Assembly (NCBI GenBank): GCA_947594595.1
Contig: CANQEE010000001.1
Span: forward strand, 1 to 49,395
From: an uncultured Bacilli bacterium
GTDB lineage: Bacteria; Bacillota_I; Bacilli_A; RF39; UBA660
Reading direction: 5' to 3'
DNA length: 49,395 nucleotides
Shown in pieces: positions 9,879 to 38,669 of this stretch (within the stretch, counting starts at the first letter, position 1; each line of letters starts with the position of its first letter). A program made the translations under genes and the position numbers. The notes beneath the pieces are model-generated. The model did not search any database and was not told where the DNA came from. It saw only the letters and a program-made list of their open reading frames with translations.

Positions 9879-9882
9879 AAGC

Positions 9883-10790: not shown

Positions 10791-10799
10791 ATTTTATGA

Positions 10800-10828
10800 T
10801 TGACCTTAAAGAAAGAAAAAGGTATACT
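10800..10828 (+). promoter_or_regulatory. sigma-A-type promoter for the AAA ATPase-gpmA unit
   Basis: TTGACC (10800-10805), 17-nt spacer, TATACT (10823-10828). Confidence 0.6.
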
Positions 10829-10861
10829 TAATTTATAAAATATGTAAGGAGAGGACAATTT

Positions 10862-12133
10862 ATGGAACGAAAAATAACTTATTTTTTAAAAAAGTGGAAA
10901 ACAGATTTGATTCGCAAACCTCTTCTTCTATATGGATCAAGACAAATTGGAAAAACTTATGCAGCCCTTTGTTTTGGAAAGAATTATTATCGCAGTACAA
11001 TTTATATAGATACTTCTCATAACAAAGCTTTGCTAGATCTTTTTAAAAAAGAACGTTCTATTGATAAGTTGGTGCTTGCTTTTTCAGAAATGACAGGAGT
11101 AGAATTCTATCAGGATGAGACTTTACTAATTTTTGATAATGTAGAAGAGATGGATATTATAAAAGGAATTAAATTATTTGGATTTGATAGAAATCCTTAT
11201 CATGTGCTTGCAATTACATCTCGCCTTGAGATGTTAACACGATTTAAAGGAGAAGAATTTCAATATAAGATGATGAGTGAAATGGATTTTGAAGAATATT
11301 TGGTTGCGATGGATGAGATGGAGATTGCAAAGCAAATCAGAGAAGCTTATATTAAAAAAAAGAGCAATGCACAACATGCAAAAACTATGGACCTTTTTAT
11401 GGATTATTTGTTAACAGGAGGATATCCGGAAGCAGTCGCAGCTAAGATGGAAGAGGCAAGTTATGGAGAAATCAATGCCATTCAACAAAAAATTTTTGAG
11501 GTTTATAAAGGGGAACTTACCAGAGAAAAAAATTTAATCGATGTTCCAAGAGGATTAGAAGTAATCTATAGTATTCCAGAACAGCTTCGTAAAGAAAATA
11601 AAAAATTTCAATATGGATTGATTGGATTTGGTCATAGAGCAAAAGAGTATGAAAGTATTATTCAAAGTCTTGTTAAACGACAACTAATTTATCGGAGTTA
11701 TAAAATTCGACAAGTGAAATCACCATTGAGTAGTTGTAAAGAAGTAGACCATTTTAAACTATATTTTCCAGATGATGGAACTCTTTCTCAACTTCTTCAT
11801 CTCTCTAAAAAAAGCTTTTTAGAAGAGGAATCTTTAAAAGAAACGCTTTATGAAAATCATATTGCGAAAACTCTTGTAGAAGCAGGATATTCTCTTTATT
11901 ATTACCAATCTAATGGAAAAGCAGAAGTCAATTTTGTAATACAAAATAGGCAAGGGCAAGTCATTCCAATTGAAATTGCAACAAGAAGCAATTCGAAAGC
12001 AAAGTCTTTATCTGTTTTTATGAAAAAATATATTACACAAGAAGCCATTCGTGTGACAGAAAATAATTTTGCAGTCAAAAAAGGAGTTCGTTATCTTCCT
12101 CCGTATGCATTTTTTTGTATGAAAGATTTATAG
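10862..12133 (+). CDS. AAA-family ATPase (AAA_14 + DUF4143-like architecture)
   Basis: 423 aa with Walker A LYGSRQIGKT near the N-terminus and Walker B-like LLIFDNVEE. Size and layout match the widespread ATP-binding DUF4143 family (recalled). Confidence 0.7.
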   Translation: MERKITYFLKKWKTDLIRKPLLLYGSRQIGKTYAALCFGKNYYRSTIYIDTSHNKALLDLFKKERSIDKLVLAFSEMTGVEFYQDETLLIFDNVEEMDIIKGIKLFGFDRNPYHVLAITSRLEMLTRFKGEEFQYKMMSEMDFEEYLVAMDEMEIAKQIREAYIKKKSNAQHAKTMDLFMDYLLTGGYPEAVAAKMEEASYGEINAIQQKIFEVYKGELTREKNLIDVPRGLEVIYSIPEQLRKENKKFQYGLIGFGHRAKEYESIIQSLVKRQLIYRSYKIRQVKSPLSSCKEVDHFKLYFPDDGTLSQLLHLSKKSFLEEESLKETLYENHIAKTLVEAGYSLYYYQSNGKAEVNFVIQNRQGQVIPIEIATRSNSKAKSLSVFMKKYITQEAIRVTENNFAVKKGVRYLPPYAFFCMKDL

Positions 12134-12146
12134 AAAGGAGTTTTAT

Positions 12147-12836
12147 ATGTATCTTGTATTAGTAAGACATGGAGAAAGTACTTGGAATTTAGAAAATCGA
12201 TTTACTGGATGGATGGATGTTCCTCTTACAAAAAAGGGAGAGGAAGATGCAGAAAATGCAGGGAAACTCTTAAAAGAAAAAGGAATTTTGTTTGATGTTG
12301 TCTATACTTCAGTTTTACAAAGGGCAATTTGTACTTGGAATATTATTCAAAAAGAATTAAATACAAAGGCTCAAGTGATTCAAAATTGGCATTTAAATGA
12401 AAGACATTATGGAGCATTACAAGGACTCAATAAAGATGAGATGCGGAAAAAGTATGGAGAAGAACAAGTCTTTCTTTGGAGAAGGAGTTTTGCAGTAAGA
12501 CCTCCTGCTTTGTCCATTCAAGATGAACGCTCTCCTTTAAAAGATCCTAAATATAAAGATTTAACAGAAGATGAAATTCCAGTAGGGGAAAGTTTAAAAG
12601 ATACAATGGGACGAACTCTTTCTTATTATTTGGAAGAAATTAAACCTCAATTAGAAAAAGGAAAAAATGTTTTAATTGTTGCACATGGAAATTCCCTTCG
12701 TTCCATTTTAAAATTTATGGAAAATATAGAAGATGATGATATTGCGAATGTTGAAATTCCATTAGGAATTCCTTATGTATACGAATTGAATGAAAAGTTA
12801 GAGATTCAAAAGAAATATTATCTTTCTAAAGAATAG
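12147..12836 (+). CDS. gpmA: 2,3-bisphosphoglycerate-dependent phosphoglycerate mutase
   Basis: LVRHGESTWNLENRFTGW histidine-phosphatase motif and AHGNSLR second catalytic His block; 229 aa. Lies only 13 nt downstream of the ATPase gene. Confidence 0.95.
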   Translation: MYLVLVRHGESTWNLENRFTGWMDVPLTKKGEEDAENAGKLLKEKGILFDVVYTSVLQRAICTWNIIQKELNTKAQVIQNWHLNERHYGALQGLNKDEMRKKYGEEQVFLWRRSFAVRPPALSIQDERSPLKDPKYKDLTEDEIPVGESLKDTMGRTLSYYLEEIKPQLEKGKNVLIVAHGNSLRSILKFMENIEDDDIANVEIPLGIPYVYELNEKLEIQKKYYLSKE

Positions 12837-12855
12837 GCACAAAAAGTGCTTTTTT
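12835..12855 (+). terminator. intrinsic terminator after gpmA
   Basis: AGGCAC / GTGCTT 6-bp stem (one G-U pair) with an A5 loop, then a T-run. Confidence 0.5.
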
Positions 12856-12865
12856 GATTTAAAAG

Positions 12866-12894
12866 TTGACGAACTATTGTTTGTGTATTATACT
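12866..12894 (+). promoter_or_regulatory. sigma-A-type promoter of the Y-family polymerase gene
   Basis: TTGACG (12866-12871), 17-nt spacer, TATACT (12889-12894). The TTG that the ORF track uses as a start codon is this -35 box. Confidence 0.65.
12870..12883 (+). promoter_or_regulatory. LexA (Cheo/SOS) box candidate
   Basis: CGAACTATTGTTTG matches the Gram-positive consensus CGAAC-N4-GTTCG at all but one position (GAAC-N4-GTTT). It overlaps the -35 box and spacer of the promoter. Confidence 0.6.
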
Positions 12895-12913
12895 AATAAA
12901 AAGGAGGAAGGAC

Positions 12914-14131
12914 ATGAAAAAAATCATCTTTCATATCGATGTAAACAATGCCTTCCTTTCTTGGAGTGCTGTTTATTTATTGCAGCATGGATATCAACAA
13001 GATATTCGAACCATTCCTTCTGTCATTGGGGGAGATGAAACAAAGAGAAAGGGTGTTGTTTTAGCAAAGAGTCCAGTCGCAAAGCAATACGGAATTATAA
13101 CTGCAGAAACGCTTTATATGGCAAGAAAAAAATGCCCACAATTACAAGTTTTTTCTGCCAATTATCAGTGGTACCGAAAGTGTTCAGAAAATCTAATGCA
13201 ATATCTAAGTCAATATACTCCTTGCTTGGAACAATTTTCGATTGATGAGTGTTTTCTTGATTTTACAGGAACTTCTTTTTTATATAAAGATTATAGAAAA
13301 GTAGCTGAAAAAATCAGAAAAGAAGTAAAAGAGAAATTTGGATTTACTGTTAATATTGGAATTGCTTCTAATAAACTTTGTGCTAAAATGGCATCAGACT
13401 TTGAAAAGCCAGATAAGATTCATACACTTTTTCAAGAAGAGATTCCGACGAAAATGTGGCCTCTTCCAGTAGGAGATTTATTTATGGTTGGAAAAAGAAG
13501 TGAATTCAAATTAAATCAGTTGGGAATTTATACCATTGGGGATTTAGCAAATGCTCCACTTTCTTTGTTGAAAAGACATTTTAAAAATCAAGCTTTCTTT
13601 CTACAAGAAGCAGCTAGAGGAATTGATTCTAGTAAAGTAATTGCAAAAAGTGAGCAAAATAAGTGTATTAGTGTGTCAGAAACTCTACAATATGATTATA
13701 AAGATGAAGCAAAACTTAAGAAAATTTTATTGTATCAGGCAGAAGAAGTGGGACGTGCTTTAAGAGAACAAAGAATGTATGCTAAAAGTATCGCAGTGAC
13801 TTATAAAAATGCCATGTTTAAAAGTTATTCTCATCAAATGACTTTATTAAATGCAACCAATTTAACGGATGAAATTTATAAAAATGCCTGTCTTTTATTT
13901 GATCAAAGTTGGAGAGAAGATCCTATTCGAAATATTGGAATTCGATTAAGTGATTTTACGATGAATACTCAAGAACAACTCTCTTTTTTTCATGAAAAGG
14001 AAGATAAATTAGAAAATAAAGTACAAGAAGTAATCGATAAAATTACAAAAAAATATGGAACAGGAAGTTTAATTCCTGCAAGCTACAAGGAAGATTCAAG
14101 ACAAAGTCATGAGAAACTAAAAAAAAGATAA
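12914..14131 (+). CDS. dinB: Y-family DNA polymerase (DinB/Pol IV-like)
   Basis: Start at ATG 12914 behind AAGGAGGA. HIDVNNAF, SIDECFLD and NIGIASNKLCAKMASD blocks are typical of the ImpB/MucB/SamB family. Confidence 0.88.
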   Translation: MKKIIFHIDVNNAFLSWSAVYLLQHGYQQDIRTIPSVIGGDETKRKGVVLAKSPVAKQYGIITAETLYMARKKCPQLQVFSANYQWYRKCSENLMQYLSQYTPCLEQFSIDECFLDFTGTSFLYKDYRKVAEKIRKEVKEKFGFTVNIGIASNKLCAKMASDFEKPDKIHTLFQEEIPTKMWPLPVGDLFMVGKRSEFKLNQLGIYTIGDLANAPLSLLKRHFKNQAFFLQEAARGIDSSKVIAKSEQNKCISVSETLQYDYKDEAKLKKILLYQAEEVGRALREQRMYAKSIAVTYKNAMFKSYSHQMTLLNATNLTDEIYKNACLLFDQSWREDPIRNIGIRLSDFTMNTQEQLSFFHEKEDKLENKVQEVIDKITKKYGTGSLIPASYKEDSRQSHEKLKKR

Positions 14132-14198
14132 ATTTTTAAAAATTTTTTGTACAAGGCTTTTAATTTGTAATTTTTCTTGAAAAATCATCAAAAAAAGC

Positions 14199-14227
14199 TT
14201 GTTTTTTCAAAATTCATATGGTATTAT
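14199..14227 (+). promoter_or_regulatory. extended -10 sigma-A promoter of the S10 operon
   Basis: TTGTTT (14199-14204), 17-nt spacer, TGgTATTAT (14219-14227), preceded by an A/T-rich UP-like tract. Confidence 0.6.
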
Positions 14228-14232
14228 TTAAT

Positions 14233-14340
14233 ACGTGTGACTGCTTAGATGTGGGAGGTTGTCGATACACCAGGTTAAGTTGTTAATTGGTTATCGGGTT
14301 ATTCACACGGAGCAAGTCTATACTCGATATAGGCGAAGGG
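14233..14340 (+). promoter_or_regulatory. structured 5' leader of the S10 operon (candidate autoregulatory leader)
   Basis: A leader of about 120 nt lies between the promoter and rpsJ. ACGTGTGA (14233-14240) can pair with TCACACG (14303-14309), enclosing a G+C-richer segment than the flanks. No family assigned. Confidence 0.35.
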
Positions 14341-14350
14341 AGGATTAAGA

Positions 14351-14662
14351 ATGTCAACAGAAAGAATTCGCATCAAATTAAAAGCATATGATCATAGAGT
14401 TCTTGATAATGCTGTTACAAAGATTGTAGAAACAATCAAACGAGGTGGAGGACAAATTAAAGGACCTGTACCATTACCAACTGAAATTGAAAAATTTACA
14501 ATCTTACGTGCAGTACATAAATATAAGGATTCACGTGAACAATTCGAAATGCGTACACACAAAAGACTAATTGATGTTAAAAATCCAAGCAAGGAAGTCG
14601 TTGATGCTTTGGCACGACTTGACTTACCAAGTGGAGTAGACATCCAAATCAAAACAAACTAA
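14351..14662 (+). CDS. rpsJ: 30S ribosomal protein S10
   Basis: [14 protein letters not shown] signature, SD GGGAGGA, first gene of the conserved cluster. Confidence 0.98.
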
Positions 14663-14677
14663 TAGGAGGAAAATAAA

Positions 14678-15463
14678 ATGAAAGGAATCTTAGGTACAAA
14701 AAAAGGAATGACCCAAGTTTTTACAAAAAATGGAAAGTTAATTCCAGTTACTGTTATTGAAGTGGAACCTAATGTGGTAACACAAATTAAAACAGTGGAA
14801 AAAGAAGGCTATGATGCAATTCAACTAGGATATAAAACTACTTCTTCTAAAAGAAGCAGTAAGCCTAAAATGGGTCATACAAAAAAAGCAGGATGCGAAC
14901 CTAAGCGCTTCTTAAGAGAAATTCGTGGAGTCAATGTGGCTGATTATACTCTTGGACAGACGCTAGATGCATCCATATTCACAGAAGGTGAAATAGTTGA
15001 TGTAAGTGGAATCAGTAAAGGAAAAGGATTCCAAGGAGTAATTAAGCGTCATAATCAAAGCCGTGGACCAATGGGACATGGTTCTCAATATCATCGTGGA
15101 GTTGGATCTCTTGGAACAATGAGACCTATGCATGTATTAAAAGGAAAAAAATTACCAGGACAGATGGGACATGTGCTAAGAACTGTTCAAAACTTAGTTA
15201 TTGTAGAAGTTGATATGGAAAATAACTGTCTTCTTGTAAAAGGGAATGTTCCAGGACCAAAGAATAGTTTAGTTTTAATCAAAACTGCTGTAAAAAATCC
15301 AGACAAAGTAAAAGAAATGGAAGAATTAGTTACTTATGTGGAAGAAATACCAGTAGAAGATTCTAAGGAAGAGCAAGCTTCAACAGAAGAAGTTCAGACT
15401 GAAGTAGAAGAATCTAAAGAAGAAACAGACGAATCATCACAAGAAGAAAAAGTAGAGGAATAA
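14678..15463 (+). CDS. rplC: 50S ribosomal protein L3 with ~55-aa acidic C-terminal extension
   Basis: [15 protein letters not shown] start, with the conserved body ending near VLIKTAVK (aa ~206). An additional E/S/T-rich tail runs to aa 261. Confidence 0.97.
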
Positions 15464-15510
15464 GATGAAACAAAGCAACCAAAAACATTGTGATGAAAGG
15501 AGGAGTTAGG

Positions 15511-16137
15511 ATGAAAAAAGCAAAACTTTTAAACCTAAAAGGTGAAGAGATTAAAGATTTAAAACTAAATGAAGAAGTGTTTGGAATTACTCCAAATGAA
15601 AAAGTAATGTATGATGCAATTGTTTTAGCACAAGCATCATTAAGACAAGGAACACACTCTACTAAAAATCGTTCTGAAGTGTCAGGTGGAGGAAGAAAAC
15701 CTTGGAGACAGAAAGGAACAGGACATGCTCGTCAAGGTTCAATTCGTGCCGTACAATGGGTTGGTGGAGGACGTTATGGAACTCCAGTACCACGTGATTA
15801 TAGCAAGAAGATGAATCGTAAAGAAAGACGCCTTGCATTAAAAAGTGCATTGTCAGAGAAATTTGCCACCGATGCAGTTCTTGTCATGGAAGAGTTGATG
15901 TTTCAAACTCCCAAGACAAAAGAGATGGTACAATTATTAAACACATTCAATCTAGCAGATAAAAAAGTATTGTTTGTTGTAGATTCATTTGAAGAAAATG
16001 TAATTTTAGCAAGTAGGAACTTACAAAATGTAGCATTGATCGCTCATGATGAAATCAATGTACTTGATTTAGTTAATGCTGATGTAGTGATCTTTACAGA
16101 AGGAGCTCTTACAAAAATAGAGGAGGTGCTTAAGTAA
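15511..16137 (+). CDS. rplD: 50S ribosomal protein L4
   Basis: GGGRKPWRQKGTGHARQGS motif. Start set at ATG 15511 because the AGGAGG SD lies inside the ORF-track extension from 15490. Confidence 0.96.
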   Translation: MKKAKLLNLKGEEIKDLKLNEEVFGITPNEKVMYDAIVLAQASLRQGTHSTKNRSEVSGGGRKPWRQKGTGHARQGSIRAVQWVGGGRYGTPVPRDYSKKMNRKERRLALKSALSEKFATDAVLVMEELMFQTPKTKEMVQLLNTFNLADKKVLFVVDSFEENVILASRNLQNVALIAHDEINVLDLVNADVVIFTEGALTKIEEVLK

Positions 16138-16418
16138 TGGATGTTAAGTACTTAGAAATTATCAAAGCACCTGTGATTACAGAAAAATCACAAGATAGAG
16201 CTACGATGGGACAATATGTATTCAAAGTAGACTCTCGTGCCAATAAAACAGAAATTAAAAATGCAATTGAGCGAATCTTTCAAGTTCAAGTAAAAGAGAT
16301 TCGCACACTCAATGTAAAACCTAAAAAAAGAAGAGTAGGACGTTACACAGGACTTACTAATAAATGGAAGAAAGCAATTGTAACCCTACAAGAAGGGCAA
16401 ACCATAGATCTTGGTTAG
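16137..16418 (+). CDS. rplW: 50S ribosomal protein L23
   Basis: APVITEKS...FKVDSRANKTEIKNAIE pattern; the ATG overlaps the rplD TAA. Confidence 0.97.
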   Translation: MDVKYLEIIKAPVITEKSQDRATMGQYVFKVDSRANKTEIKNAIERIFQVQVKEIRTLNVKPKKRRVGRYTGLTNKWKKAIVTLQEGQTIDLG

Positions 16419-16433
16419 AAGGAGGAATAATTT

Positions 16434-17264
16434 ATGGCAATTAGAAACTATAAACCTACTACACCAGGACGCAGAAAAATGAGTACGTTGATCAATGATG
16501 AAATTACTAAGACAACACCTGAAAAAAGTCTTGTAAAAACAGTAAAAAAGAATGCTGGACGAAACAATCAAGGGAAAATTACAGTAAGACATCAAGGTGG
16601 AGGAGTCAAAAGAAAATATCGTATCATTGATTTTAAACGTAATAAATTAGATATTCCTGGAAAAGTAGCAAGTATTGAATATGATCCAAATAGAACTGCC
16701 AATATTGCACTCATTCATTATCTGGATGGAGAAAAAAGATATATTCTTGCTCCAAAAGGATTAGAAGTAGGAATGGAAGTAATGGCAGGAGAAAATGCAG
16801 ATATCAAAGTGGGAAATGCTCTACCTCTTATGAGTATCCCAGTTGGTACAGTAATTCATAATATTGAACTTCGCCCTGGAAAAGGAGGAAGTTTAGCACG
16901 AAGTGCTGGTACTTCTGCCCAAATTCTAGGTAGAGAAGGAGCCTATGTCATGGTAAGACTTTCTAGTGGAGAGCAAAGAAAAGTTCTTGGAACTTGCATG
17001 GCTACTATTGGAGAAGTAGGAAATGAGGACGCAAGTCTTGTAAAACTTGGAAAAGCAGGACGTAAACGTCATATGGGAATCCGACCTACAGTTCGTGGTT
17101 CTGTTATGAATCCAAATGATCACCCACATGGTGGTGGTGAAGGACGTGCTCCTGTTGGACGAAAAGCTCCACTTACACCTTGGGGTAAAAAAGCACTTGG
17201 TCTTAAAACACGTAAAAATAAAAGGACGGATAAATTTATTGTTCGCCGTCGTGGAAGTAAATAG
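16434..17264 (+). CDS. rplB: 50S ribosomal protein L2
   Basis: [18 protein letters not shown] and [14 protein letters not shown] motifs. Confidence 0.98.
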
Positions 17265-17273
17265 GAGGAAATT

Positions 17274-17546
17274 ATGGCAAGAAGTTTAAAGAAAGGACCT
17301 TATGTATTTGATCGATTACTAAAAAAGGTTCAAGAACTTAATAAAAATGGAAAAAAAGAAGTGATCAAAACATGGTCACGCCGTTCTACCATCTATCCTG
17401 ATTTTATAGGACATACTTTTGCTGTTCACAATGGACATGAATTTATCCCAGTTTATGTAACAGAAGATATGGTTGGACACAAATTAGGAGAATTTTCACA
17501 AACTCGTAAATTTGGTGGACACGGACAAGATAAGAAGAAAAAGTAA
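17274..17546 (+). CDS. rpsS: 30S ribosomal protein S19
   Basis: [11 protein letters not shown]...GHTFAVHNG signature. Confidence 0.98.
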
Positions 17547-17561
17547 GAGGGAGGACAAATA

Positions 17562-17894
17562 ATGGAAGCAAAAGCAATCGCAAAATCACTTCGAGTTTCT
17601 CCCATTAAAACACGTTTAGTCGTTGATTTAATTCGCGGAAAAAAAGTAAGTGATGCACTGAATATTTTAAATAATATGAACAAAAAGTCAGCAAGACTTA
17701 CCAAAAAAGTACTTGATTCAGCAATCGCTAACGCAGTCAATAATAACGGTGCTGATATCAATACTTTATATGTTAAAGAAGCAAGAGTGGACGCAGGTCC
17801 TGTGATGAAACGAGTTTTATTTGATTCACGTGGGCGAATCGGACACAAAGACAAAAGAACAAGTCACATTGTAATTGTTGTGGCAAGTAAGTAA
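17562..17894 (+). CDS. rplV: 50S ribosomal protein L22
   Basis: LRVSPIKTRLVVDLIRGK signature and conserved position. Confidence 0.97.
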   Translation: MEAKAIAKSLRVSPIKTRLVVDLIRGKKVSDALNILNNMNKKSARLTKKVLDSAIANAVNNNGADINTLYVKEARVDAGPVMKRVLFDSRGRIGHKDKRTSHIVIVVASK

Positions 17895-29217: not shown

Positions 29218-30642
29218 ATGAAAAACAAAGCTATTACACCAAGAGATGTAGATTTTGCAAAATGGTATACAGATGTTGTAAAAGCAGCACATCTTGCAGA
29301 TTATTCTAATGTAAAAGGATGTATTGTCTTTGAGCCAAATGGATATGCATTATGGGAAAAAATGCAATCAGTTTTAGATAAAAAGTTTAAAGAAACAGGT
29401 CATCAAAATGTTTATATGCCACTTTTAATCCCAGAAAATTTATTAAAAAAAGAAGGAGAACTGATTCAAGGATTTGCTCCGGAAGTTGCTTGGGTAAGTG
29501 AAGGTGGAGAGAAAAAGTTAGAAGAAAGACTTTGCATTCGTCCAACAAGTGAAACTTTATTTAGTGATTATTATAGTCATGTTGTAAAATCTTATCGTGA
29601 TTTACCTTTGAAATATAATCAGTGGTGTAATGTAATGCGTTGGGAAAAAGAAACTCGTCCTTTCCTAAGAAGCCGTGAATTTTTATGGCAAGAAGGGCAT
29701 ACGGTACATGAAACACAAGAGGAAGCAGAAGAAGAGACCAGGAAAATGTTACAGGTTTATAAGACTTTCTTTGAGGATTATCTTGCAATTCCTGTCATTA
29801 CTGGAAAGAAAACAGAAAAAGAAAAGTTTGCAGGTGCTGAATATACTTTAACTATTGAAGCTCTTATGTACAATGGTGTTTGTCTTCAGTCTGGAACATC
29901 TCATTATTTTGGTCAGAAATTTTCAAAAGCATATGACATTTCCTTTAAAGATAGGAAGAATCAACTCAGTTATTGTTACCAAACTTCTTGGGGAACGACA
30001 ACTCGTATGATTGGAGCTTTAATTATGGTTCATAGTGATGAGAATGGTCTTGTCTTGCCCCCTAAAATTGCTCCTTTACAAGTTATGATTGTACCAATTC
30101 AAAATTCTGATTCAGTATTAAAAGTTGCTGAAAATGTAGAAGAAAAACTAAAAAAAGAAGGAATCGAAGTAAAAATAGATACGAGTGATAAATCAGCAGG
30201 ATTTAAATTTGCAGAAGCAGAAGTCAAGGGTATTCCTCTTCGAATTGAAATTGGAAAAAGAGATTTAGAGCAAGAAAAAATAGTGATTACTCGTAGAGAT
30301 ACTAGAGAAAAACGTGAAATTTCTTTGAAAGAAGATATTGTATTTATTGTAAAAAATATTATGGAAACTATGCAAGAAGAAATGTTTTCTCGTGCAAAAG
30401 AAAGAAGAGATTCTTTTACCTTTACTTGTCATACTCTAGAAGAAGTAAAAGAGCAGATGAATAAACAACCTGGATTTATTCATGCAATGTGGTGTGGAGA
30501 AGAAAAGTGCGAATTAAAAATGAAAGAGATCAAAGGAACTAAATCACGTTGTATTGTAGAAAATGGTGAAAGAATCGATGAATGTTGTGTAGTTTGTGGA
30601 AAAAAAGCAAAGCACCATGTTATTTGGGGAATTCAATATTAA
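29218..30642 (+). CDS. proS: proline--tRNA ligase, short archaeal/eukaryote-like type
   Basis: 474 aa with no INS editing insertion. N-terminus ITPRDVDFAKWYTDVV, class II motifs (RPTSET, FLWQEGHT, GTSHYFG), and a C-terminal Cys-rich extension ending in Tyr (WGIQY). Confidence 0.93.
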   Translation: MKNKAITPRDVDFAKWYTDVVKAAHLADYSNVKGCIVFEPNGYALWEKMQSVLDKKFKETGHQNVYMPLLIPENLLKKEGELIQGFAPEVAWVSEGGEKKLEERLCIRPTSETLFSDYYSHVVKSYRDLPLKYNQWCNVMRWEKETRPFLRSREFLWQEGHTVHETQEEAEEETRKMLQVYKTFFEDYLAIPVITGKKTEKEKFAGAEYTLTIEALMYNGVCLQSGTSHYFGQKFSKAYDISFKDRKNQLSYCYQTSWGTTTRMIGALIMVHSDENGLVLPPKIAPLQVMIVPIQNSDSVLKVAENVEEKLKKEGIEVKIDTSDKSAGFKFAEAEVKGIPLRIEIGKRDLEQEKIVITRRDTREKREISLKEDIVFIVKNIMETMQEEMFSRAKERRDSFTFTCHTLEEVKEQMNKQPGFIHAMWCGEEKCELKMKEIKGTKSRCIVENGERIDECCVVCGKKAKHHVIWGIQY

Positions 30643-30920: not shown

Positions 30921-30949
30921 TTGCTTACCATTATCTTTTTTGTTATAAT
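30921..30949 (+). promoter_or_regulatory. extended -10 sigma-A promoter of the repeat-protein gene
   Basis: TTGCTT (30921-30926), 17-nt spacer, TGtTATAAT (30941-30949), 24 nt upstream of the ATG region with SD AAAGGAGA. Confidence 0.7.
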
Positions 30950-30972
30950 AAGGAACAAAAGGAGAAACGAAT

Positions 30973-32523
30973 ATGAAAGTAAAACTAATTAAATGGATAA
31001 GAGAAAATTTGAATGAAGAAGAAATTAGCAAAATAGATTTTCAAATACTTATTGAATATGATGAAAAAGTATTTAACTTAATTTTATCATCTGATTCTCA
31101 AAAAAGATTACCTTTGTTAGAATTTTTTTCTTTAAAAGAAAAGAAAAACTCAGTTTATGAATTGTACCAAAAAAATCCTGAAAAAATAATAAAATTAGGA
31201 GAAATTATTCAAAATACAAAAGTGGAAACTCAAACTCAAATAGAATATGGAGTGAAAGTTGCACGAAATGAAATCATTTTGGCAAGAAAAGATGGAATTC
31301 AAATTGTAGAATTGGTTATAAATTCAAAAGGATGTCCTCAAGCAAAATATGGAGCAGAAGTTTCTTGTAATGAAAAAGTATTAGCAAGCGCAAATGCTCT
31401 TGATTATGTCCAAAGTATTACAAATGCAGATACATGGTATCAAGCGAAATATGGAGCAGAAGTTCTCTTTGATGAGGTTCTCCTAAAAAATGAAAATGCT
31501 CTTCAATATGTTAGATTGGTAACAAGTGCAAAACAATGGTATCAAGCAATATATGGAGCACAACTTACGCATGAAGAATTACTTTTAGCAAGAAAAGATG
31601 GGGTTCAAATTGTAGAAGCAATTACCAAATCAAAAGGAGAAGAACAAGCAAAAAATGCTGTAAAGGTTACTCATAAAATGCTTGCAATGAAAAAAGAAAA
31701 TATCCTTGCTTTTATACAGTTAATTGCTGCAAGCAAAGAAGATTACCATGCGAAATATGGAGCAGAAGTTTCTTGTAATGAAAAAGTATTAGCAAGCGCA
31801 AATGCTCTTGATTATGTTCAAAGTATTACAGGAGCAAGTGCATGGTATCAAGCAAAATATGGAGCAGAAGTTATAGAATATTCGAAAATTTTAGAAAGAG
31901 AAGATGGAATTCAATTTGTAAATACAGTTGTTAAAGCAAGAGGATTAGCTCAAGCAGAATATGGAAGTGAGCTTATTCATAATGAACTTCTCTTAAAAAA
32001 TAAAAATGCTCTTCAATATGTTAGATTGGTAACAAGTGCAAAGCAATGGCATCAAACAAAATATGGGACAGAGGTTGCTCATAAAATGATTGCCTCAAAA
32101 AGAGAAAATGGCCTTGCTTTTACTCAATTATTTACAACAAGTGAAGAAGAATATCAAGCAAAGTATGGAGCACACATTATTCGTAATGAAAAAGTTTTAG
32201 CAAAAGAAGATGCTCTTGATTATATTCAAATCATCACAAGCGCAGAAACGGAAGAAGCTGCAGGATTGGCAACCACGCTTTTAGAACAAGCAGTTGAACT
32301 AAATTATCCAATTTCTAAAGCTTTTATTCAAAGAGTTGCAGATGGGACATATATAGAAAAAGTAAAAGAATATTTAGGAGAGAAAAAAGAGGAAAAGATG
32401 AAAGCTACCATTTTTGGAGACCGTTGGAATATTCAAAATAAAGATCAATTAGATATTTTGATTGCTCAAATGGAACAAAGAGAAAGCACAATTTCAACAA
32501 ATAAAATCTATCAAAAAAAATAA
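30973..32523 (+). CDS. helical tandem-repeat protein (10 x 34 aa), function unknown
   Basis: 516 aa: an 88-aa N-terminal region, ten contiguous gap-free 34-aa repeats (consensus QAKYGAEVxxNExxLAxxxALxYVQxITxAxxWY), and a ~88-aa C-terminal region. It has its own promoter and SD and no signal peptide. Confidence 0.85.
   Translation: MKVKLIKWIRENLNEEEISKIDFQILIEYDEKVFNLILSSDSQKRLPLLEFFSLKEKKNSVYELYQKNPEKIIKLGEIIQNTKVETQTQIEYGVKVARNEIILARKDGIQIVELVINSKGCPQAKYGAEVSCNEKVLASANALDYVQSITNADTWYQAKYGAEVLFDEVLLKNENALQYVRLVTSAKQWYQAIYGAQLTHEELLLARKDGVQIVEAITKSKGEEQAKNAVKVTHKMLAMKKENILAFIQLIAASKEDYHAKYGAEVSCNEKVLASANALDYVQSITGASAWYQAKYGAEVIEYSKILEREDGIQFVNTVVKARGLAQAEYGSELIHNELLLKNKNALQYVRLVTSAKQWHQTKYGTEVAHKMIASKRENGLAFTQLFTTSEEEYQAKYGAHIIRNEKVLAKEDALDYIQIITSAETEEAAGLATTLLEQAVELNYPISKAFIQRVADGTYIEKVKEYLGEKKEEKMKATIFGDRWNIQNKDQLDILIAQMEQRESTISTNKIYQKK
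31237..32256 (+). repeat. 10 tandem 102-bp coding repeats, including near-identical copies
   Basis: Strict 102-nt period. 31345-31464 and 31753-31872 differ at about 8 of 120 nt, with the first 65 nt identical. 31485-31560 and 31995-32070 are also near-identical (offset 510 nt). Confidence 0.9.
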
Positions 32524-32648: not shown

Positions 32649-32677
32649 TTGAAAAAGAAGGAAAAAGAAAGTATACT
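32649..32677 (+). promoter_or_regulatory. sigma-A-type promoter of the T-box leader
   Basis: TTGAAA (32649-32654), 17-nt spacer, TATACT (32672-32677). Confidence 0.65.
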
Positions 32678-32692: not shown

Positions 32693-32892
32693 AAATGTAT
32701 AGAAGTAGTAGTAACTTTTAATGTTTTGAAAGAGACTCTATGTTTGGTGGAAATAGAGAAAACATTCTAGTGAACTTGACTTCTAAGATACATTTCGGAA
32801 AAAGTCCGTTATCATGAAAAAGTTGCATAGACACTATGAAATAAGATGGTACCGCCCAGAAAAAGGGTTCTTATGGAAAAGGTGTCTTTTTT
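32693..32892 (+). promoter_or_regulatory. T-box leader, leucine specifier (CUU)
   Basis: The Stem I base pairs AAATGTATAGAAG (32693-32705) with CTTCTAAGATACATTT (32780-32795). It has AGTAGTA and GAAAGAGA elements and a distal helix CTCTAT/ATAGAG with a GGTGGAA loop. The specifier loop GTGAA-CTT-GA has CUU at 32775-32777. The T-box sequence AGATGGTACCGCCC is at 32844-32857, and the terminator ends GGTGTC plus T6 (32887-32892). Confidence 0.75.
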
Positions 32893-32904: not shown

Positions 32905-33261
32905 ATGATGCACGAACTTATTTTATTTGGAATGACCTTTTTATTCATCTTTTTAATTTATGAACTTTTTATTGTGAGAAAAGAAAAAAAAGGAAAGTCT
33001 AAAAAGAAACCTATCGAAGTTCGTTATTTGGAAGCAAGATATAAAATAGTTGTAAAAGGAACACAGTATAGACGTTTACTTAATATTGTAAGTGTTGTCA
33101 GTGCCTTTGATATTGCTCTTATTGTAACGCTTATTATGATTACTAAGAGTTTTATCTTAGAGCTTGTTTTAGGAGCTTGCTTAACATTTCCTATTATTCT
33201 TATAAGCTATCACATAGTTGGAAAATATTATCAAAAGAAAGGAATGAAGAAACATGTATGA
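32905..33261 (+). CDS. small membrane protein (118 aa, 3 predicted TM helices), first cistron of the T-box-controlled unit
   Basis: Strong SD AGGAGG at 32895-32900. TM segments are [39 protein letters not shown] and [16 protein letters not shown]. Its stop overlaps the leuS ATG (ATGTATGA). Confidence 0.6.
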
Positions 33262-35653
33262 TTTTAGAAAAATAGAAAAGAAATGGCAAAAGTATTGGAA
33301 GGAACATCAAACATTTAAGACAGATGTATGGGATTTTAGTAAACCAAAATTCTATGTTCTTGATATGTTTCCTTATCCAAGTGGAGTTGGACTTCATGCA
33401 GGACATGTAGAAGGATATACTGCAACTGATATTGTCTCTCGAATGAAAAGAATGCAAGGGTATAATGTTCTTCATCCAATGGGATATGATTCATTTGGAC
33501 TTCCTGCAGAACAATATGCTGTGCAAACAGGGAATCATCCAAGCAAATTTACCGAAAAAAATATTGATTATTTTAGTGAACAATTAAATACGCTTGGTTT
33601 TGATTACGATTGGGATAAGATGGTTGCAACAAGTGATCCTAAATTTTACAAATGGACGCAGTGGATCTTTAAACAACTTTATCAAGATGGTTATGCTAAG
33701 TATATAGACATGCCAGTTAATTGGTGTGAAGAATTAGGAACTGTTCTTTCTAATGATGAAGTGATTGATGGGAAATCAGAACGTGGCGGGTATCCTGTTA
33801 TTCGAAAGAATATGAGGCAACTTTGTATCGATCAACCAGCCTTTGCTGAACAACTTCTAGAAGGATTGGAAGAAATTGATTGGCCAGAATCTACCAAAGA
33901 AATGCAAAGAAACTGGATTGGAAAGTCAATTGGAGCCCATGTGACTTTTAAAATTGCAGGACATGAAAAAGAATTTACAGTTTTTACAACACGTTGTGAT
34001 ACTTTATTTGGTGCGACTTATTGTGTTTTAGCGCCAGAGCATGCTTATGTAGATGAAATTACAACCGAAGAACATAAAAAAGAAGTGGCATCATACAAAA
34101 AAGCTTGTGCTTCTAAAAGTGATTTGGAACGGACTGAGTTAAACAAAGACAAGACAGGTGTCTTTACAGGAGCTTATGCCATCAATCCTGTTAACGAAGA
34201 AAAAATTCCAATTTATATCAGTGATTATGTACTAGCAAGCTATGGAACCGGTGCCATTATGGCAGTACCAGCACATGATGATAGAGATTATGAATTTGCA
34301 AAGAAGTTTGATATTCCAATTATACAAGTCTTAGAAGGTGGAGATATTTCAAAGGAAGCTTATACTCAAGATGGAGTTCACATCAATTCCGGATTTTTAA
34401 ATGGTATGAATAAGCAAGACGCCATTGATGCAATGATAAAATGGTTAGAAGAACATCATTGTGGAAGCAGAAAAGTAAATTATAAATTCCGAGAATGGAT
34501 TTTTGCTCGTCAAAGATACTGGGGAGAACCTGTTCCGATTGTACACCTAGAAGATGGTACGGATTATGTTTTGGATGATCCTGAACTTCCACTTGTTTTA
34601 CCGGAACTAGAAGACTATAAAGGACATCATGGGAAAGCACCTTTGGAAAATGCAGTTGAATGGAAACAATATACAACTAAAGATGGAAGAAAGGGAATAA
34701 GGGAGACTTCAACAATGCCAGGAAGTGCTGGTTCTAGCTGGTATTACTTTCGCTATATTGATCCAGAGAATGAGAAAGTATTTTGTGATCCAAAATTAGC
34801 AAAACACTGGCTTCCTGTTGATCTTTATATGGGTGGACCAGAACATGCAGTAGGACATTTAATGTATTCAAGAATTTGGAATCGATATCTTTATGAAAAA
34901 GGGTTATCTCCTGTAAAAGAACCTTTTCAAAAATTAGTTCATCAAGGGATGATTTTAGGAGAAAATGGAATCAAAATGGGAAAACGGTATCCAGAGTATG
35001 CTATTGATCCAAAAGAGATTGCTAAAGAATATGGCGCTGATACACTACGACTTTATGAAATGTTTATGGGACCTATTGAATCATCAAAACCATGGAGTGC
35101 AAGTGGAGTAGAAGGAGCCAAAAAATTTCTAGATCGTGTTTGGCGTTTCTTTACAAATCCTGAAAATTTAACTGAAGAAAGTGATGGTTCTCTTGATAAA
35201 ATATATCATCAAACTGTAAAAAAAGTGACAGAAGATTTTGAAAGCCTTGGATTTAATACAGCTATTAGCCAAATGATGATTTTTGTAAATGAGTGTTACA
35301 AAGTAGGAAGTTGTCCTAAAGAGTATGCAAAAAAGTTTATTCAAATGATGAGTTGTATTACTCCTCATATGGGAGAAGAAATTTGGCAAATTTTAGGACA
35401 TGATACAACACTTGCCTATGAACCTTGGCCTGTTTACGATGAAAGTTATTTAAAAGAAGAAGAAAAAGAAATAGCAGTTCAAGTAAATGGAAAAGTTCGT
35501 GCAACAATTTTTGTTCGAGAAGAAGAGGATGAAAAAAGGATTGAAGAAAAAGCTCTTCAAGAAGAAAATGTTCAAAGACATATTGCTGGAAAAGAAATTG
35601 TCAAGGTCATTGTTATTAAAGGGAAAATTTGTAATATTGTTGTAAAAAATTAA
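33254..35653 (+). CDS. leuS: leucine--tRNA ligase
   Basis: 799 aa with [16 protein letters not shown] (HIGH region), the CP1 editing region, and a KMGKR variant of the KMSKS loop. Confidence 0.97.
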
Positions 35654-35914: not shown

Positions 35915-37213
35915 TTATTCTTCTTTTTCTTTTCGTATTATTGTTCTAATTCCATAATAAGTTGGAAAGAAGTGTTTCATTGCAGAGTATAGAAAGGAAT
36001 CAATTATGTAATCGAATTCTCCAATTAACTCTACGACTTCTCCTCCAAAATTCTTTTTAAAAAGATAACTTCCATACATGGGACTGTTTTCTCTAAAATC
36101 TCCTGAAATTTCATATAAATTATAAAGATTATAACCATTTTCTTTTGCAAACTGAATCATTTCATAATGAAGTGTAATTGAAGCATCTAATTTTTTCCAT
36201 TCTTCGAAAACTCCACCATGGAGTGCAATTACTTCATTTCCATAACAGATTAGGAAATATCCTCCTAAAAGAATTTCTTCTCCATTTTCTTGCAAAGCAA
36301 GTTGATAAGCTTCTTTTCTTTTCTCTAGACTTTGAATCAATTCTTCTTGTTGTTTTTCTTTCTCTAAGAATTCTTTTTCGTTCATATGTAAAACAACTTC
36401 TTTTTGGAAAGCTCTATTATAATAAGCTTGTTTTTGTTCTTGCAGTTCTCTCTCAATTTCTTCAAGTGCCTCTTTTGGATGTAGTTCTACACCAACCATT
36501 TTAATAGCTTCTTCAGGAAAAGATTCTATAAAATCTTCATAATAATGATTGGTATATTCAATTGTATGATATTTTTCACTTGTTTCTTTCATAATTGAGA
36601 CAAAGCTTTCAATTTCTTTTTTCTTAAGAAATCGTGATCTTATTCCTTCTCGTTTATTTCGATGAACAATCTGTCTTGTTTTATCTCCCATTTCCTTTTC
36701 AAGCATTTCAAAAGATTTATTTCTTAAATCAATAGCGTATAACCATCGTGGTTGAATCATATTTCGCTTAAAGTCATCTCCCACATGTATGAACCCTACT
36801 TCTTCTAGAAGCTTTATGATAGGACTATTATCTTTTCCACCTTTTTGCAGTTCTCCATTTTTATCTCTTTCATGCCAAGAAAGATAAGGATCTATCTTTA
36901 GATAAATTCCCTTTTTTTCTTTTACAAACTGAATGACTTCTTTTGTAAAAACTTTTACTAATTCCTCTTTCTGATAGTCAATTAAAAATCCTCTAGGTGC
37001 ATAAAAATAACGTTTTTTAAAAAATTTTGTATCTTGTGAAAGCAGTAAAGTAGCAGCTACAAGTTTTCCTTTTTCTTTGTATCCTAAAAAATAAGGATGC
37101 CATCCGTCTTTTTCCATAAATTTAGCCCAGTATGAGTTTTGTTGAAAATTATTATGGGGATGAGATTCTGCAAAGGAGTCAAATTCTTGCTTTTTTAGTT
37201 CTATCACCATCAT
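35915..37213 (-). CDS. FemAB-family peptidoglycan interpeptide-bridge aminoacyltransferase
   Basis: 432 aa. The N-terminus FDSFAESHPHNNFQQ...YAPRGF is followed by a central coiled-coil insertion (EIERELQEQKQAYYNRAF...EKEKQQEELIQSLEKRKEAY) and a C-terminal YNLYEISGDF...GSYLFKKNFGG block, as in FemA/FemX/MurM. The second ATG at 37210 has better SD spacing. Confidence 0.85.
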   Translation of the reverse strand: MMVIELKKQEFDSFAESHPHNNFQQNSYWAKFMEKDGWHPYFLGYKEKGKLVAATLLLSQDTKFFKKRYFYAPRGFLIDYQKEELVKVFTKEVIQFVKEKKGIYLKIDPYLSWHERDKNGELQKGGKDNSPIIKLLEEVGFIHVGDDFKRNMIQPRWLYAIDLRNKSFEMLEKEMGDKTRQIVHRNKREGIRSRFLKKKEIESFVSIMKETSEKYHTIEYTNHYYEDFIESFPEEAIKMVGVELHPKEALEEIERELQEQKQAYYNRAFQKEVVLHMNEKEFLEKEKQQEELIQSLEKRKEAYQLALQENGEEILLGGYFLICYGNEVIALHGGVFEEWKKLDASITLHYEMIQFAKENGYNLYNLYEISGDFRENSPMYGSYLFKKNFGGEVVELIGEFDYIIDSFLYSAMKHFFPTYYGIRTIIRKEKEE

Positions 37214-37364: not shown

Positions 37365-37400
37365 AAAAAAATAGAATAAGTTATGAAAGAGGGAATAAAT

Positions 37401-38669
37401 ATGCTTCAGGAAATAGAAGAAAATGAGTTTCAATCTTTTGCAGAGTCTCATCCATTATTCACATTTCATCAAACAAAAGAGTGGGCTTCTTTGAAACAGA
37501 AGAATGGGTGGGAGCATCATTATGTTTTTTATCAAAAAGGAAAAAAGAAGGCTGCAGCTTTGCTTCTTATGAAACCTCTTTTTCTAGGAAAAGTAATGTG
37601 TTATAGTCCAAGAGGTTTTCTTCTTGATTATGAAGATCAAAAGTTTTTAGCCTCTTTTACAGACGCATTGAAAAAATATTTAAAAGAAAAAAAAGCTATT
37701 TTTGTTAAAATTGATCCACCTCTTCTCCTACAAGAGAGAGATATTGATGGACATCTTGTTGAAAATGGAAAAAACCATAAAAAAGTTGTTTCTGTTTTAA
37801 AGTCACTTGGTTACATTCATTATGGGTTTTCAAAAGGAATAGAAAAAGAATTACAACCAAGGTGGGTTTTTGCTCTTTCTCTTGATAAAAAAAGTGAAGA
37901 ACAAATTTATGAAAACTTTGATACAAGGACAAAACGTTCTATTAAGAAGTGTGAGAGAGAAGGTATTTTTGTAAGAGAGATGAAAGAGGGTGAACTTCCA
38001 CTTTTTAAAGCTATTATGGAGCATACTGCAAATCGTAGAGGTTTTTTAGATAGACCTTTTCAATATTATCAAAATATGGTTTCTGAATTAAAAAAACATT
38101 GCTCTATTTTGCTTTGTTTTCTTGATGTTGAAAAAGCATTTTCTCTTTTAGAAGAACGTGAAAAAGAACAGAAGATTAAACAAAAAAATTATCAGGATCA
38201 AAAGGAGAGTAAAAAGAAAGAAGCTCTTTTAAAAGAAAGTGAAAAACAACTCAATCAAATTCAAGAAAAAAAAGAATTTTTGTTACATTTACAAAAAGAA
38301 AGAGGAAATCAAATTATACTAGGTGGTTCTATGTTCTTACAGTATGGAAAAGAAAAAACTTATCTTTTTGGTGGAAGTTATCAAGAGTTTATGCAATATC
38401 CAAGTCAATATTATATTCAGTGGAAGTCTATTCAAATGGCTAAAAAACAAGGATGTAAACTCTATAATTTTTATGGAATTGATGGGAATTTTGAATCTCC
38501 AAGTGAAATGCATGGAATTTATGAATTTAAAAGAGGTTTTGATGGAGAAGTAAGAGAATATATAGGAGAATTTGATCTTCCTATTTCGAAAACTTTTTAT
38601 AGATTTTATCGCTTTGCATTTCCTATTTATAAAAAAATGAAAAAAATTTTAATAAAAAAGAAGAATTAG
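37401..38669 (+). CDS. FemAB-family peptidoglycan interpeptide-bridge aminoacyltransferase (paralog)
   Basis: It has the same architecture as the divergent neighbour and looks roughly 40 percent identical by eye: FQSFAESHPLFTFHQ, YSPRGF, a coiled-coil insert and YNFYGIDGNF...GIYEFKRGFDG. ATG 37401 lies behind AGAGGGA; the ORF-track ATG at 37383 has no SD. Confidence 0.85.
   Translation: MLQEIEENEFQSFAESHPLFTFHQTKEWASLKQKNGWEHHYVFYQKGKKKAAALLLMKPLFLGKVMCYSPRGFLLDYEDQKFLASFTDALKKYLKEKKAIFVKIDPPLLLQERDIDGHLVENGKNHKKVVSVLKSLGYIHYGFSKGIEKELQPRWVFALSLDKKSEEQIYENFDTRTKRSIKKCEREGIFVREMKEGELPLFKAIMEHTANRRGFLDRPFQYYQNMVSELKKHCSILLCFLDVEKAFSLLEEREKEQKIKQKNYQDQKESKKKEALLKESEKQLNQIQEKKEFLLHLQKERGNQIILGGSMFLQYGKEKTYLFGGSYQEFMQYPSQYYIQWKSIQMAKKQGCKLYNFYGIDGNFESPSEMHGIYEFKRGFDGEVREYIGEFDLPISKTFYRFYRFAFPIYKKMKKILIKKKN

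Follow-up and report, generated by a model that had tools for sequence, protein, structure and literature searches.

Within a 49,395-nt stretch of DNA from an uncultured Bacilli bacterium (hereafter the window) lies a gene whose product carries ten tandem repeats of 34 residues. In nature, programmable binders come mainly from alpha-solenoid repeats such as TALE, PPR, PUF, ARM and TPR, and the original prediction had proposed that four classes of repeat in this protein, following one another in an order without period, could form an alphabet that encodes binding specificity. Does the order of the repeats at this locus spell out a target, or is the protein a plain scaffold?

The open reading frame is a genuine gene for a soluble protein. 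Its position, strand and length agree with the list of open reading frames (Table 1) and, as had been claimed, no transmembrane segment is present, the maximum Kyte-Doolittle mean over 19 residues being 1.03. The promoter consists of a -35 element TTGCTT (30921-30926), a 17-nt spacer and the extended -10 element TGtTATAAT (30941-30949), so the gene does have the extended -10 promoter of its own that had been predicted. It was not listed by a consensus scan because the -35 element matches at only three of six positions. The motif TGnTAnAAT also occurs 31-43 nt upstream of the start codon in six of ten homologous loci. No SOS (Cheo) box was seen upstream of the gene on inspection of the sequence by eye. 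Both the GC content (30.2%) and GC3 (13%) are similar to those of neighbouring genes and the gene therefore looks native. It had been placed alone between proS and the T-box of leuS; proS is indeed found upstream and the T-box, then leuS, downstream, but an extra small open reading frame precedes leuS.

Table 1 Features of the repeat protein gene and its surroundings (nucleotide positions in the window).
Feature	Position	Strand	Extent and basis
Sigma-A-type promoter	30921..30949	+	read directly from sequence
RBS AGGAG	30960..30964	+	8 nt before ATG; from sequence
Coding sequence	30973..32523	+	516 aa + stop; ORF list
N-terminal helical cap	30973..31236	+	aa 1-88; conserved across family; alignments
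Ten gap-free 34-aa repeats	31237..32256	+	aa 89-428; 102 nt each
Starts of repeats W1 to W5	31237, 31339, 31441, 31543, 31645
Starts of repeats W6 to W10	31747, 31849, 31951, 32053, 32155
Degenerate eleventh unit (C-terminal cap)	32257..32358	+	aa 429-462; model helices
C-terminal tail	32359..32520	+	aa 463-516; alignments and model
T-box	32695-32875		E 3e-16, 76.7 bits; below Rfam gathering score of 93
Small membrane ORF	32905-33261		118 aa; between T-box and leuS

The ten gap-free units were located at residues 89-428, as originally described. Self-identity of the protein was 0.32-0.51 at every multiple of 34 residues, compared with a maximum over all lags of 0.184 in 2000 shuffles, and the repeat is therefore far beyond chance. 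The octapeptide QAKYGAEV, said to open each unit, holds as a consensus only, its exact form being found in three of the ten (W2, W3 and W7). Assignment of the repeats to classes A (W1, W4, W7), B (W2, W6, W10), C (W3, W8) and D (W5, W9) fits the matrix of pairwise identities (W2-W6 88%, W3-W8 74%, W2-W10 62%, W5-W9 53%, W1-W4 50%). The boundaries of these four classes are nevertheless fuzzy. Members of class A are only 38-50% identical to one another, whereas B and C share up to 56%, and average-linkage clustering at a distance of 0.55-0.65 merged the latter two to give three groups (A, B+C and D).

Nor is the order A-B-C-A-D-B-A-C-D-B aperiodic, since the top self-similarity falls at 136 residues, equal to four repeats, where identity is 50.5% versus 32% at a lag of 34. 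The array can be laid out in four-repeat blocks as [A B C A][D B A C][D B], with B at positions 2, 6 and 10 and D at positions 5 and 9. At the DNA level, a segment of 192 nt recurs with a spacing of 408 nt. Codons 19-30 of W3 and W8 are identical in DNA and codons 2-13 are heavily altered. The classes probably represent the trace of recent internal duplication of a four-repeat block together with gene conversion. On this reading, the four repeat classes of the window protein are not an alphabet.

AlphaFold2 returned an all-alpha model of the full-length protein (pLDDT 86.5, pTM 0.78) and a model of a five-repeat fragment with pLDDT 93.8 and pTM 0.89, built on shallow alignments of 2 and 8 rows. 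These confident models support a solenoid that is alpha-helical throughout, each repeat having three helices of ~11, 4 and 9 residues, and so bear out the alpha-solenoid that had been proposed; W5 and W9, both of class D, have their first two helices fused. Preceding the array is an N-terminal cap with the family motif MKKxLLxxLL...LxDExxxxIL...YLY, modelled as entirely helical at pLDDT 88-93. The eleventh unit gave no significant match to the repeat profile and is modelled with helices at residues 427-442 and 449-457. It is followed by a tail comprising a low-confidence linker, the helix QLDILIAQMEQRE and a basic end, KIYQKK; residues 470-484 and 502-516 have a pLDDT under 50.

The core of the repeat is made of small or hydrophobic residues (A2, A5, V8, A9, V14, L15, A20, L21, I23, V24 and I27). 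The conserved polar residues N11, the D19-x-x-E22 capping box and N29/G32 fall at helix caps in the model, which points to a structural role. By per-position entropy, about 12 positions are the most variable, namely 3, 6, 7 and 10 on one face of helix 1, 12, 13, 16 and 18, and 31-34, of which 32-34 form a loop. The variable positions would form an exposed stripe along the solenoid, their exposure and concave or convex placement being deduced from helical periodicity and not from coordinates.

Searches with known families returned no home for this repeat. In the window protein, Pfam gave no match to any repeat family (among them TAL_effector, TPR, PPR, PUF, HEAT and DUF4116), nor to mTERF, Arm or Sel1, even at E<=10, and none of these families recurs among 66 relatives. 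This includes DUF4116, to which an ExxLLxxxxALxYV-like motif had been likened; the similarity is loose and by eye only, and the 66 relatives gave no DUF4116 match at E<=0.01. Weak matches of longer relatives to TIR, RRM_3 and FliG_N were below the cut-off, non-recurrent and inside the repeats, and were rejected as spurious. Neither the protein nor its relatives had a meaningful match in NCBIfam, PADLOC or PHROGs. Sequence and profile searches of the PDB, in which the complete protein and the profiles of the repeat and of the N-cap served as queries, gave no significant natural match; designed repeats and FliG alone appeared, at E ~0.1, and the family repeat profile found nothing among PDB sequences at E<=10. 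Using Foldseek, the five-repeat fragment had no PDB match at E<=1e-3, and viral structures gave no match, the best being tape-measure proteins at E 0.25. The repeat type is absent from Pfam, NCBIfam and PDB, and the modelled fold appears to have no PDB counterpart, the best TM being 0.5, to designed proteins.

The exact protein has no record in a database look-up. Queried with the protein and with an alignment of 66 family sequences, a word-indexed homology search gave a single homolog, P0001, and the family was therefore revealed through an exhaustive HMM search, which found 93 relatives (cluster representatives) at E<=1e-3 and 40 at E<=1e-10. A common architecture of N-terminal cap, a varying number of 34-residue repeats and C-terminal tail unites them, with the repeat consensus QAxYAxxVAxNxxVLxRxDALEIVKxIANAKGEY. 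The window protein scored ten domains against the iterated family repeat HMM (E 1.7e-80). Its N-cap is 58% identical to that of P0001 and can be aligned with 29 more distant members, and the tail segment QLDILIAQMEQRESTISTNKIYQKK aligns with P0001. By eye, the tail corresponds to SLDxLIxxL...ITxxTKVKVKIK of relatives; most relatives have the form (hydrophobic)DxLIxxL ... ITxxTKVKVKIK, some members diverge, and most end in a basic VKVKIK-like stretch.

The family is confined to uncultured low-GC (25-35% GC) gut Bacilli. A scan of genome contigs gave matches in the source MAG only, and no relatives were found in a scan of metagenome contigs or by tblastn against phages and plasmids. The genes are always chromosomal and co-directional within strings of housekeeping genes, with leuS, truA, tsf, rpsO/pnp and rny among the neighbours. 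No conserved partner gene was found across the family loci examined, and no fused or co-occurring domain in the family points to a ligand. One relative adjoins CotZ-like and SpoVA genes, and two sit between recA and rny. A RecX-like role was considered on account of the latter and rejected, as the RecX Pfam model was unmatched and eight other contexts differ. In some genomes divergent paralogs stand in tandem, with 2 to at least 5 in an array; such arrays would also fit an arms-race role in immunity, anti-phage defence or as effectors. Given its restriction to uncultured gut Bacilli and its tandem paralog arrays, the family marks unexplored biology in gut Firmicutes with reduced genomes and is a candidate for a new protein-engineering scaffold.

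Across the family, the period is 34 residues in 229 of ~300 adjacent repeat pairs, and the number of repeats ranges from ~3 to 17 between relatives. Divergence between species is strong; within a species the protein is stable, with 15 variable sites in 598 residues among 15 variants and a constant length. Mean identity of repeats within a protein is 25-33% in the relatives, within a range of 25-38% for the proteins compared, and for 84% of repeats the nearest neighbour lies in another protein. Together with the spread of variation over many positions, this means that the classes form a continuum in relatives, an outcome that the original prediction had itself named as refuting its proposed code.

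These data bear directly on the possibility that the protein is a modular nucleic acid reader (TALE-like, PPR or PUF) in which the repeat order corresponds to a DNA or RNA sequence. TALEs and TALE-like proteins (Xanthomonas TALEs, Burkholderia BurrH/Bat) likewise are solenoids built from helical repeats of 33-35 residues in tandem, and the strict 34-residue period here is what such a reader would have. TAL effectors also made up the top ~40 full-length Foldseek matches (E 6e-4 to 2e-2), but with a TM of only 0.15-0.22 and an rmsd of ~28 A; they lead the list because the period alone matches. For the five-repeat fragment, which had no significant PDB match, TALEs reached a TMq of 0.19-0.36 (rmsd 10-15 A, E>=0.13), under that of designed repeats. 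The window protein is thus not superimposable on the right-handed TALE superhelix (Foldseek TM 0.15-0.36). When the family repeat profile was compared with TALE and BurrH repeats by hhalign, the probability was 0.08% (E 0.62), although the segment that matched best, IANAKxxxQA against IAgNxGGaQA or IASNxGGKQA, does fall around the RVD loop, a faint local resemblance.

The build of the repeat differs as well. A TALE repeat has two helices and a short loop bearing the variable residues 12 and 13, whereas the repeat of the window protein has three helices, and variability in the family is spread over ~12 positions instead of an RVD-type di-residue, with classes that are continuous in relatives. 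Unlike TALEs, members of the family come from gut Bacilli, have no secretion signals, show low within-protein repeat identity and are acidic (median pI 5.4, pI below 7 in 89% of members; median net charge -9.5, down to -29); this composition would argue against DNA binding at one base per repeat. Paralog expansion in some genomes does recall PPR and TALE families, and translation or RNA genes are often adjacent: proS and leuS at this locus, and at others leuS, truA, tsf, rpsO/pnp and rny. The Pfam models TAL_effector, PPR, PUF and mTERF and the PDB sequence search, none of which gave a hit, speak against such a reader, and our search of the literature brought up no relevant work on TALE-like repeats from Firmicutes. 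A TALE-, PPR- or PUF-type four-letter code is accordingly not supported and the reader as a whole seems to us most improbable. With the four-letter code largely excluded, the immediate value of the locus is modest, and the yield of the analysis is a family definition and a structural model.

Other helical repeats offer partial likenesses. The best matches of the fragment were de novo designed helical repeats (DHR79, DHR8, DHT03 arms and 8erw; TMq 0.44-0.50), which are likewise idealised short-loop alpha-solenoids, but artificial, two-helix and evolutionarily unrelated, and at E 0.05 or higher the matches are not significant. Armadillo (~42 residues, as in importin-alpha) and Pumilio/PUF (~36 residues) repeats share three helices per repeat and structural residues conserved beside a variable stripe on one helix; the window repeat, at 34 residues, is shorter than both. 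TPR and RRNPP-type regulators of Firmicutes share the 34-residue period, the cytoplasmic location, the Firmicute host and plausible protein or peptide ligands. The TPR consensus is of the type W4-L7-G8-Y11-A20-F24-A27-P32, and each TPR is an antiparallel pair of helices (A/B), as opposed to three helices in the window repeat. Neither TPR structures nor Arm, HEAT or PUF structures were among the best 50 Foldseek matches listed. An RRNPP quorum-sensing receptor was rejected: there is no HTH or TPR match, no convincing downstream peptide ORF, and the repeats number up to 17.

The plain scaffold or adaptor, originally offered as the sober alternative, is the better reading, but not as a member of the TPR or DUF4116 families. 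Overall, we give an even chance to a cytoplasmic all-alpha solenoid of an unannotated family that has its own promoter, acts as a scaffold or adaptor and carries its repeat classes as a duplication footprint. The vegetative-type promoter would drive constitutive expression, and a protein or extended-peptide ligand may bind along the variable surface. This ligand is probably basic, because the family is acidic, an argument that is weaker for the window protein than for the family since the former is near neutral (pI 6.3, net charge -3). Importin-alpha has an acidic groove and binds basic extended peptides, and may serve as a functional analogy only.

Could the variable surface instead have evolved against a toxin or phage protein? 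Such a conflict protein, conferring immunity to a polymorphic toxin, mimicking DNA to counter restriction or sensing phages, would account for the tandem arrays of divergent paralogs, the strong divergence between species and the patchy, lineage-restricted distribution, and the family proteins, acidic and elongated, resemble known DNA mimics. We nevertheless consider it unlikely: PADLOC and PHROGs gave no match, the family was not found in phages and plasmids, and no toxin, restriction-modification or mobile-element gene is consistently adjacent. The genes lie at native GC in core housekeeping strings, with low variation and no repeat-number polymorphism within species. The wide range of repeat numbers among relatives would equally suit a rigid rod of adjustable length, that is, a cytoskeletal, envelope- or spore-associated polymer subunit, for which the conserved N-cap and C-tail could provide head-to-tail contacts, and the CotZ-like and SpoVA genes beside one relative are in keeping with this. 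However, spore or cytoskeleton neighbours occur at no other locus, the promoters are of the vegetative sigma-A type and not of a sporulation type, and a pure spacer rod would hardly keep its variable positions in a stripe along one face of a helix, which makes a structural role quite improbable.

More far-reaching would be a new kind of programmable reader of linear polymers, in which each repeat contacts one unit of an extended ligand, be it a basic peptide or possibly single-stranded nucleic acid, and the order of repeats sets the specificity. We think this very unlikely. If true, contacts would be made through positions 3, 6, 7 and 10 of helix 1 together with 12, 13 and 16, and the paralog arrays would supply different specificities.

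The repeat-protein gene was found at the originally predicted position and strand and encodes 516 aa. Cutting aa 89-428 at 34 residues gave the claimed ten gap-free units (W1-W10) in perfect register. By autocorrelation, the self-identity of this region was 0.32-0.51 at all multiples of 34 aa against a maximum over all lags of 0.184 in 2000 shuffles, and the repeat is therefore real. The octapeptide QAKYGAEV, said to open every unit, holds as a consensus but is exact in only 3/10 units. Similarly, the four proposed classes, A (W1, W4, W7), B (W2, W6, W10), C (W3, W8) and D (W5, W9), are consistent with the pairwise identities (W2-W6 88%, W3-W8 74%, W2-W10 62%, W5-W9 53%, W1-W4 50%) but are not crisp: clustering at a distance of 0.55-0.65 yields three groups (A, B+C and D), with identities of 38-50% within class A and up to 56% between B and C. 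Overall, the original observation was essentially accurate.

The order of the repeats had been described as aperiodic, which did not hold. Autocorrelation peaks at 136 aa, equivalent to four repeats, with 50.5% identity compared with 32% at a lag of 34 aa, and a 192-nt segment recurs in the DNA at the corresponding spacing of 408 nt. Block by block, the array reads A-B-C-A, D-B-A-C, D-B. W2 and W6 differ in only 6 codons, while W3 and W8 are identical at the DNA level over codons 19-30 and heavily changed over codons 2-13. This codon-level pattern is what recent duplication of blocks, together with gene conversion, would be expected to leave, and the W3/W8 mosaic suggests that conversion within the array was patchy. 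The GC content of the gene (30.2%, GC3 13%) is in line with that of neighbouring genes.

The protein belongs to an unannotated family. Searching Pfam-A at E<=10 returned only four sub-threshold chance matches, none of them to TPR, Sel1, HEAT, Arm, PUF, PPR, TAL_effector or DUF4116, so that the suggested resemblances to TPR and DUF4116 repeats both fail; nothing meaningful was found in NCBIfam, PDB sequences, PADLOC or PHROGs. A word-indexed search of 5.8 billion proteins recovered a single homolog, P0001 (375 aa, 40% local identity), encoded in a MAG of rabbit-gut origin that bears the label 'uncultured Bacilli bacterium'. P0001 shares the N-terminal domain and the C-terminal tail, but between them it has only six repeats, arranged C-A-A-C-A-A. 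When 1.84 billion cluster representatives were searched exhaustively with an HMM built from the two sequences, 93 relatives emerged (40/93 at E<=1e-10), whereas the word-indexed search still returned one homolog with a 66-sequence profile. For low-complexity, fast-evolving repeat proteins, a word index thus badly underestimates family size.

No Pfam or NCBIfam family is common to 66 relatives. Their shared architecture comprises an N-terminal helical cap (~90-120 aa, MKKxLLxxLL ... LxDExxxxIL ... YLY), tandem repeats and, in most members, a C-terminal tail consisting of a helix (hydrophobic-D-x-L-I-x-x-L), an acidic patch and an alternating basic/hydrophobic end, ITxxTKVKVKIK. Applied iteratively to 70 proteins of the family, a repeat HMM gave ~3-17 repeats per protein, a 34-residue period in 229 of ~300 adjacent repeat pairs, and the consensus Q1 A2 x Y4 A5 x x V8 A9 x N11 x x V14 L15 x R17 x D19 A20 L21 E22 I23 V24 K25 L26 I27 A28 N29 A30 K31 G32 E33 Y34. 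The family is acidic (median pI 5.4, 89% of members below pI 7, net charge down to -29); the window protein, at pI 6.3, is almost neutral.

The proposed alpha-solenoid was supported by AlphaFold2, which modelled it confidently and without interruption both in the full-length protein (mean pLDDT 86.5, pTM 0.78) and in a five-repeat fragment, aa 123-292 (pLDDT 93.8, pTM 0.89, all five models above 91). In the model, a helical N-terminal domain runs on into the repeats, each of three helices (~11, 4 and 9 residues), with helices 1 and 2 fused in the two class D repeats, and the array ends in a degenerate eleventh unit that serves as a cap; the final ~50 residues are of low confidence. Conserved polar residues coincide with the modelled helix caps: N11 precedes helix 2, and helix 3 lies between the D19-x-x-E22 capping box and N29/G32. 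The predicted core is made of conserved small and hydrophobic residues. Entropy is highest at positions 3, 6, 7 and 10, the i, i+3, i+4, i+7 stripe of helix 1, followed by 12, 13, 16, 18 and the 32-34 loop. From the helical periodicity, we infer that the variable positions form one exposed surface.

The more speculative proposal, a TALE-like four-letter code, was not borne out. The best PDB matches to the full-length model are nearly all TAL effectors (E 6e-4 to 2e-2), with TM of only 0.15-0.22 and rmsd ~28 A. The five-repeat fragment has no PDB match at E<=1e-3 and fits TALEs (TMq 0.19-0.36, rmsd 10-15 A) less well than de novo designed helical repeats (TMq up to 0.50). Aligning a family triple-repeat profile by hhalign with authentic BurrH repeats from a PDB alignment and with TALE repeats of Xanthomonas gave a probability of 0.08% (E 0.62, 10 columns), and the repeat profile found nothing among PDB chains at E<=10. 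TALE-type readers carry a variable di-residue in a near-constant repeat; unlike these, the family repeats vary over ~12 positions. Among relatives, the classes dissolve into a continuum, an outcome that the original proposal had named in advance as counting against it: mean repeat identity within a protein is 25-33%, compared with 38% in the window protein, the nearest neighbour of 84% of repeats lies in a different protein, P0001 has classes A and C while B and D are private to the window protein, and loop motifs across the wider family grade from RxDA through xxNA to SGxA. We conclude that the full-length matches stem from the common 34-residue period of the helical repeat, and that the protein is not homologous to the TALE-likes, nor is it structurally equivalent to TALEs. 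With these results and the acidity of the family, a modular nucleic-acid reader is very improbable.

As modelled, the protein is a soluble alpha-solenoid whose end modules and core are conserved, with a variable stripe placed at the surface by helical periodicity; the predicted lack of a transmembrane segment was confirmed (maximum 19-residue hydropathy 1.03). It would most likely serve as a scaffold or adaptor binding a protein or extended peptide along that stripe. Importin-alpha is an acidic solenoid that holds basic peptides, and by analogy the ligand may be basic. The basic C-terminal tail, left undocked by AlphaFold (pLDDT < 50), may interact with membranes, with nucleic acid or with the protein itself. 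The paralog arrays described below and the acidity of the family would also suit a conflict-related binder, whether immunity protein, DNA mimic or anti-phage sensor, which we consider unlikely; that the same solenoid is simply a structural rod is somewhat less likely again. Alpha-solenoid repeat proteins are well known as a general kind. The 34-residue three-helix repeat with cap and tail has no Pfam or NCBIfam model and no PDB relative by sequence or fold, and our literature search found no description of it; the family is therefore new within this kind. It represents an orphan repeat family of uncultured gut Bacilli, clean and confidently modelled, with tandem paralog expansion.

Across the ten independent loci read, the family gene invariably lies on the chromosome and is transcribed in the same direction as the genes around it, within housekeeping strings at varying sites and with no conserved partner gene beside it. 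The lean towards translation and RNA genes may merely reflect small genomes. P0016, a distant member (~19% identity), lies immediately downstream of leuS, and the window gene upstream; this adjacency may have arisen by chance, the genomes being small, or may survive from an ancient linkage. An N-cap, 8-17 repeats and a C-tail are present in every one of the tandem paralogs of L006 and L011. A TGnTAnAAT extended -10 element lies 31-43 nt 5' of the start codon in 6/10 homologous loci, as in the window, which supports a putative vegetative, monocistronic expression. Phage and plasmid collections contain no member of the family. Two within-species clusters showed 15 variable sites/598 aa (15 variants) and 31 variable sites/464 aa. 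Length was constant among the members compared, from which one protein of 476 aa in the second cluster had been excluded, and the gene is thus stable within species.

Features of the window and gene order at loci carrying family genes (X, family gene)
Feature	Position	Strand	Description
proS	29218-30642		archaeal/eukaryote-type ProRS: class II core, HGTP anticodon domain, ProRS-C_1 domain
Extended -10 promoter	30921-30949		TTGCTT, 17 nt, TGtTATAAT
Repeat-protein gene	30973-32523	+	AGGAG 8 nt 5' of ATG
Repeat array	31237-32256		ten units
C-terminal tail	32446-32520		STISTNKIYQKK in place of ITxxTKVKVKIK; low AlphaFold confidence
Promoter-like site	32649-32677		TTGAAA-17-TATACT; precedes T-box
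T-box leader of leuS	32695-32875	+	Rfam, E 3e-16, 76.7 bits
118-aa ORF	32905-33261	+	hydrophobic stretches; between T-box and leuS
leuS	33254-35653	+	start overlapped 8 nt by end of 118-aa ORF
FemAB-family gene	35915-37213	-	divergent pair, just downstream of leuS
FemAB-family gene	37383-38669	+	divergent pair
Window			proS, X, T-box-leuS
L001			TMEM164-like, X, ... ThiF, LexA
L003 and L005			recA, X, rny
L006 (Logan SRR18763208)	8001-17605		greA-hyp, X X X X X; tandem divergent paralogs, at least 5 genes, 534-762 aa
L008			PTS-EIIB, X, histidine kinase
L010			trx, X, parE/gyrB
L011	4734-8797		truB-AAA, X X, ... rpsO-pnp; tandem divergent paralogs, 2 genes
L012	4485-8524		leuS, X (P0016)
L013			truA, X, rplM-rpsI
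L014			tsf, X ... frr

In the window, the promoter and neighbours of the gene were as originally described, with proS upstream and the T-box, then leuS, downstream. The T-box is clear by its E-value, but its score falls below the Rfam gathering score of 93, which explains its absence from the default whole-window Rfam scan. Since the 118-aa ORF (no Pfam match) intervenes and overlaps leuS, the T-box appears to govern a two-gene unit. The gap between proS and the preceding ORF is ~100 nt, and no T-box was detected in it. The FemAB-family gene pair points to interpeptide bridges in the peptidoglycan; the organism is therefore walled and not a Mollicute, despite 32% GC.
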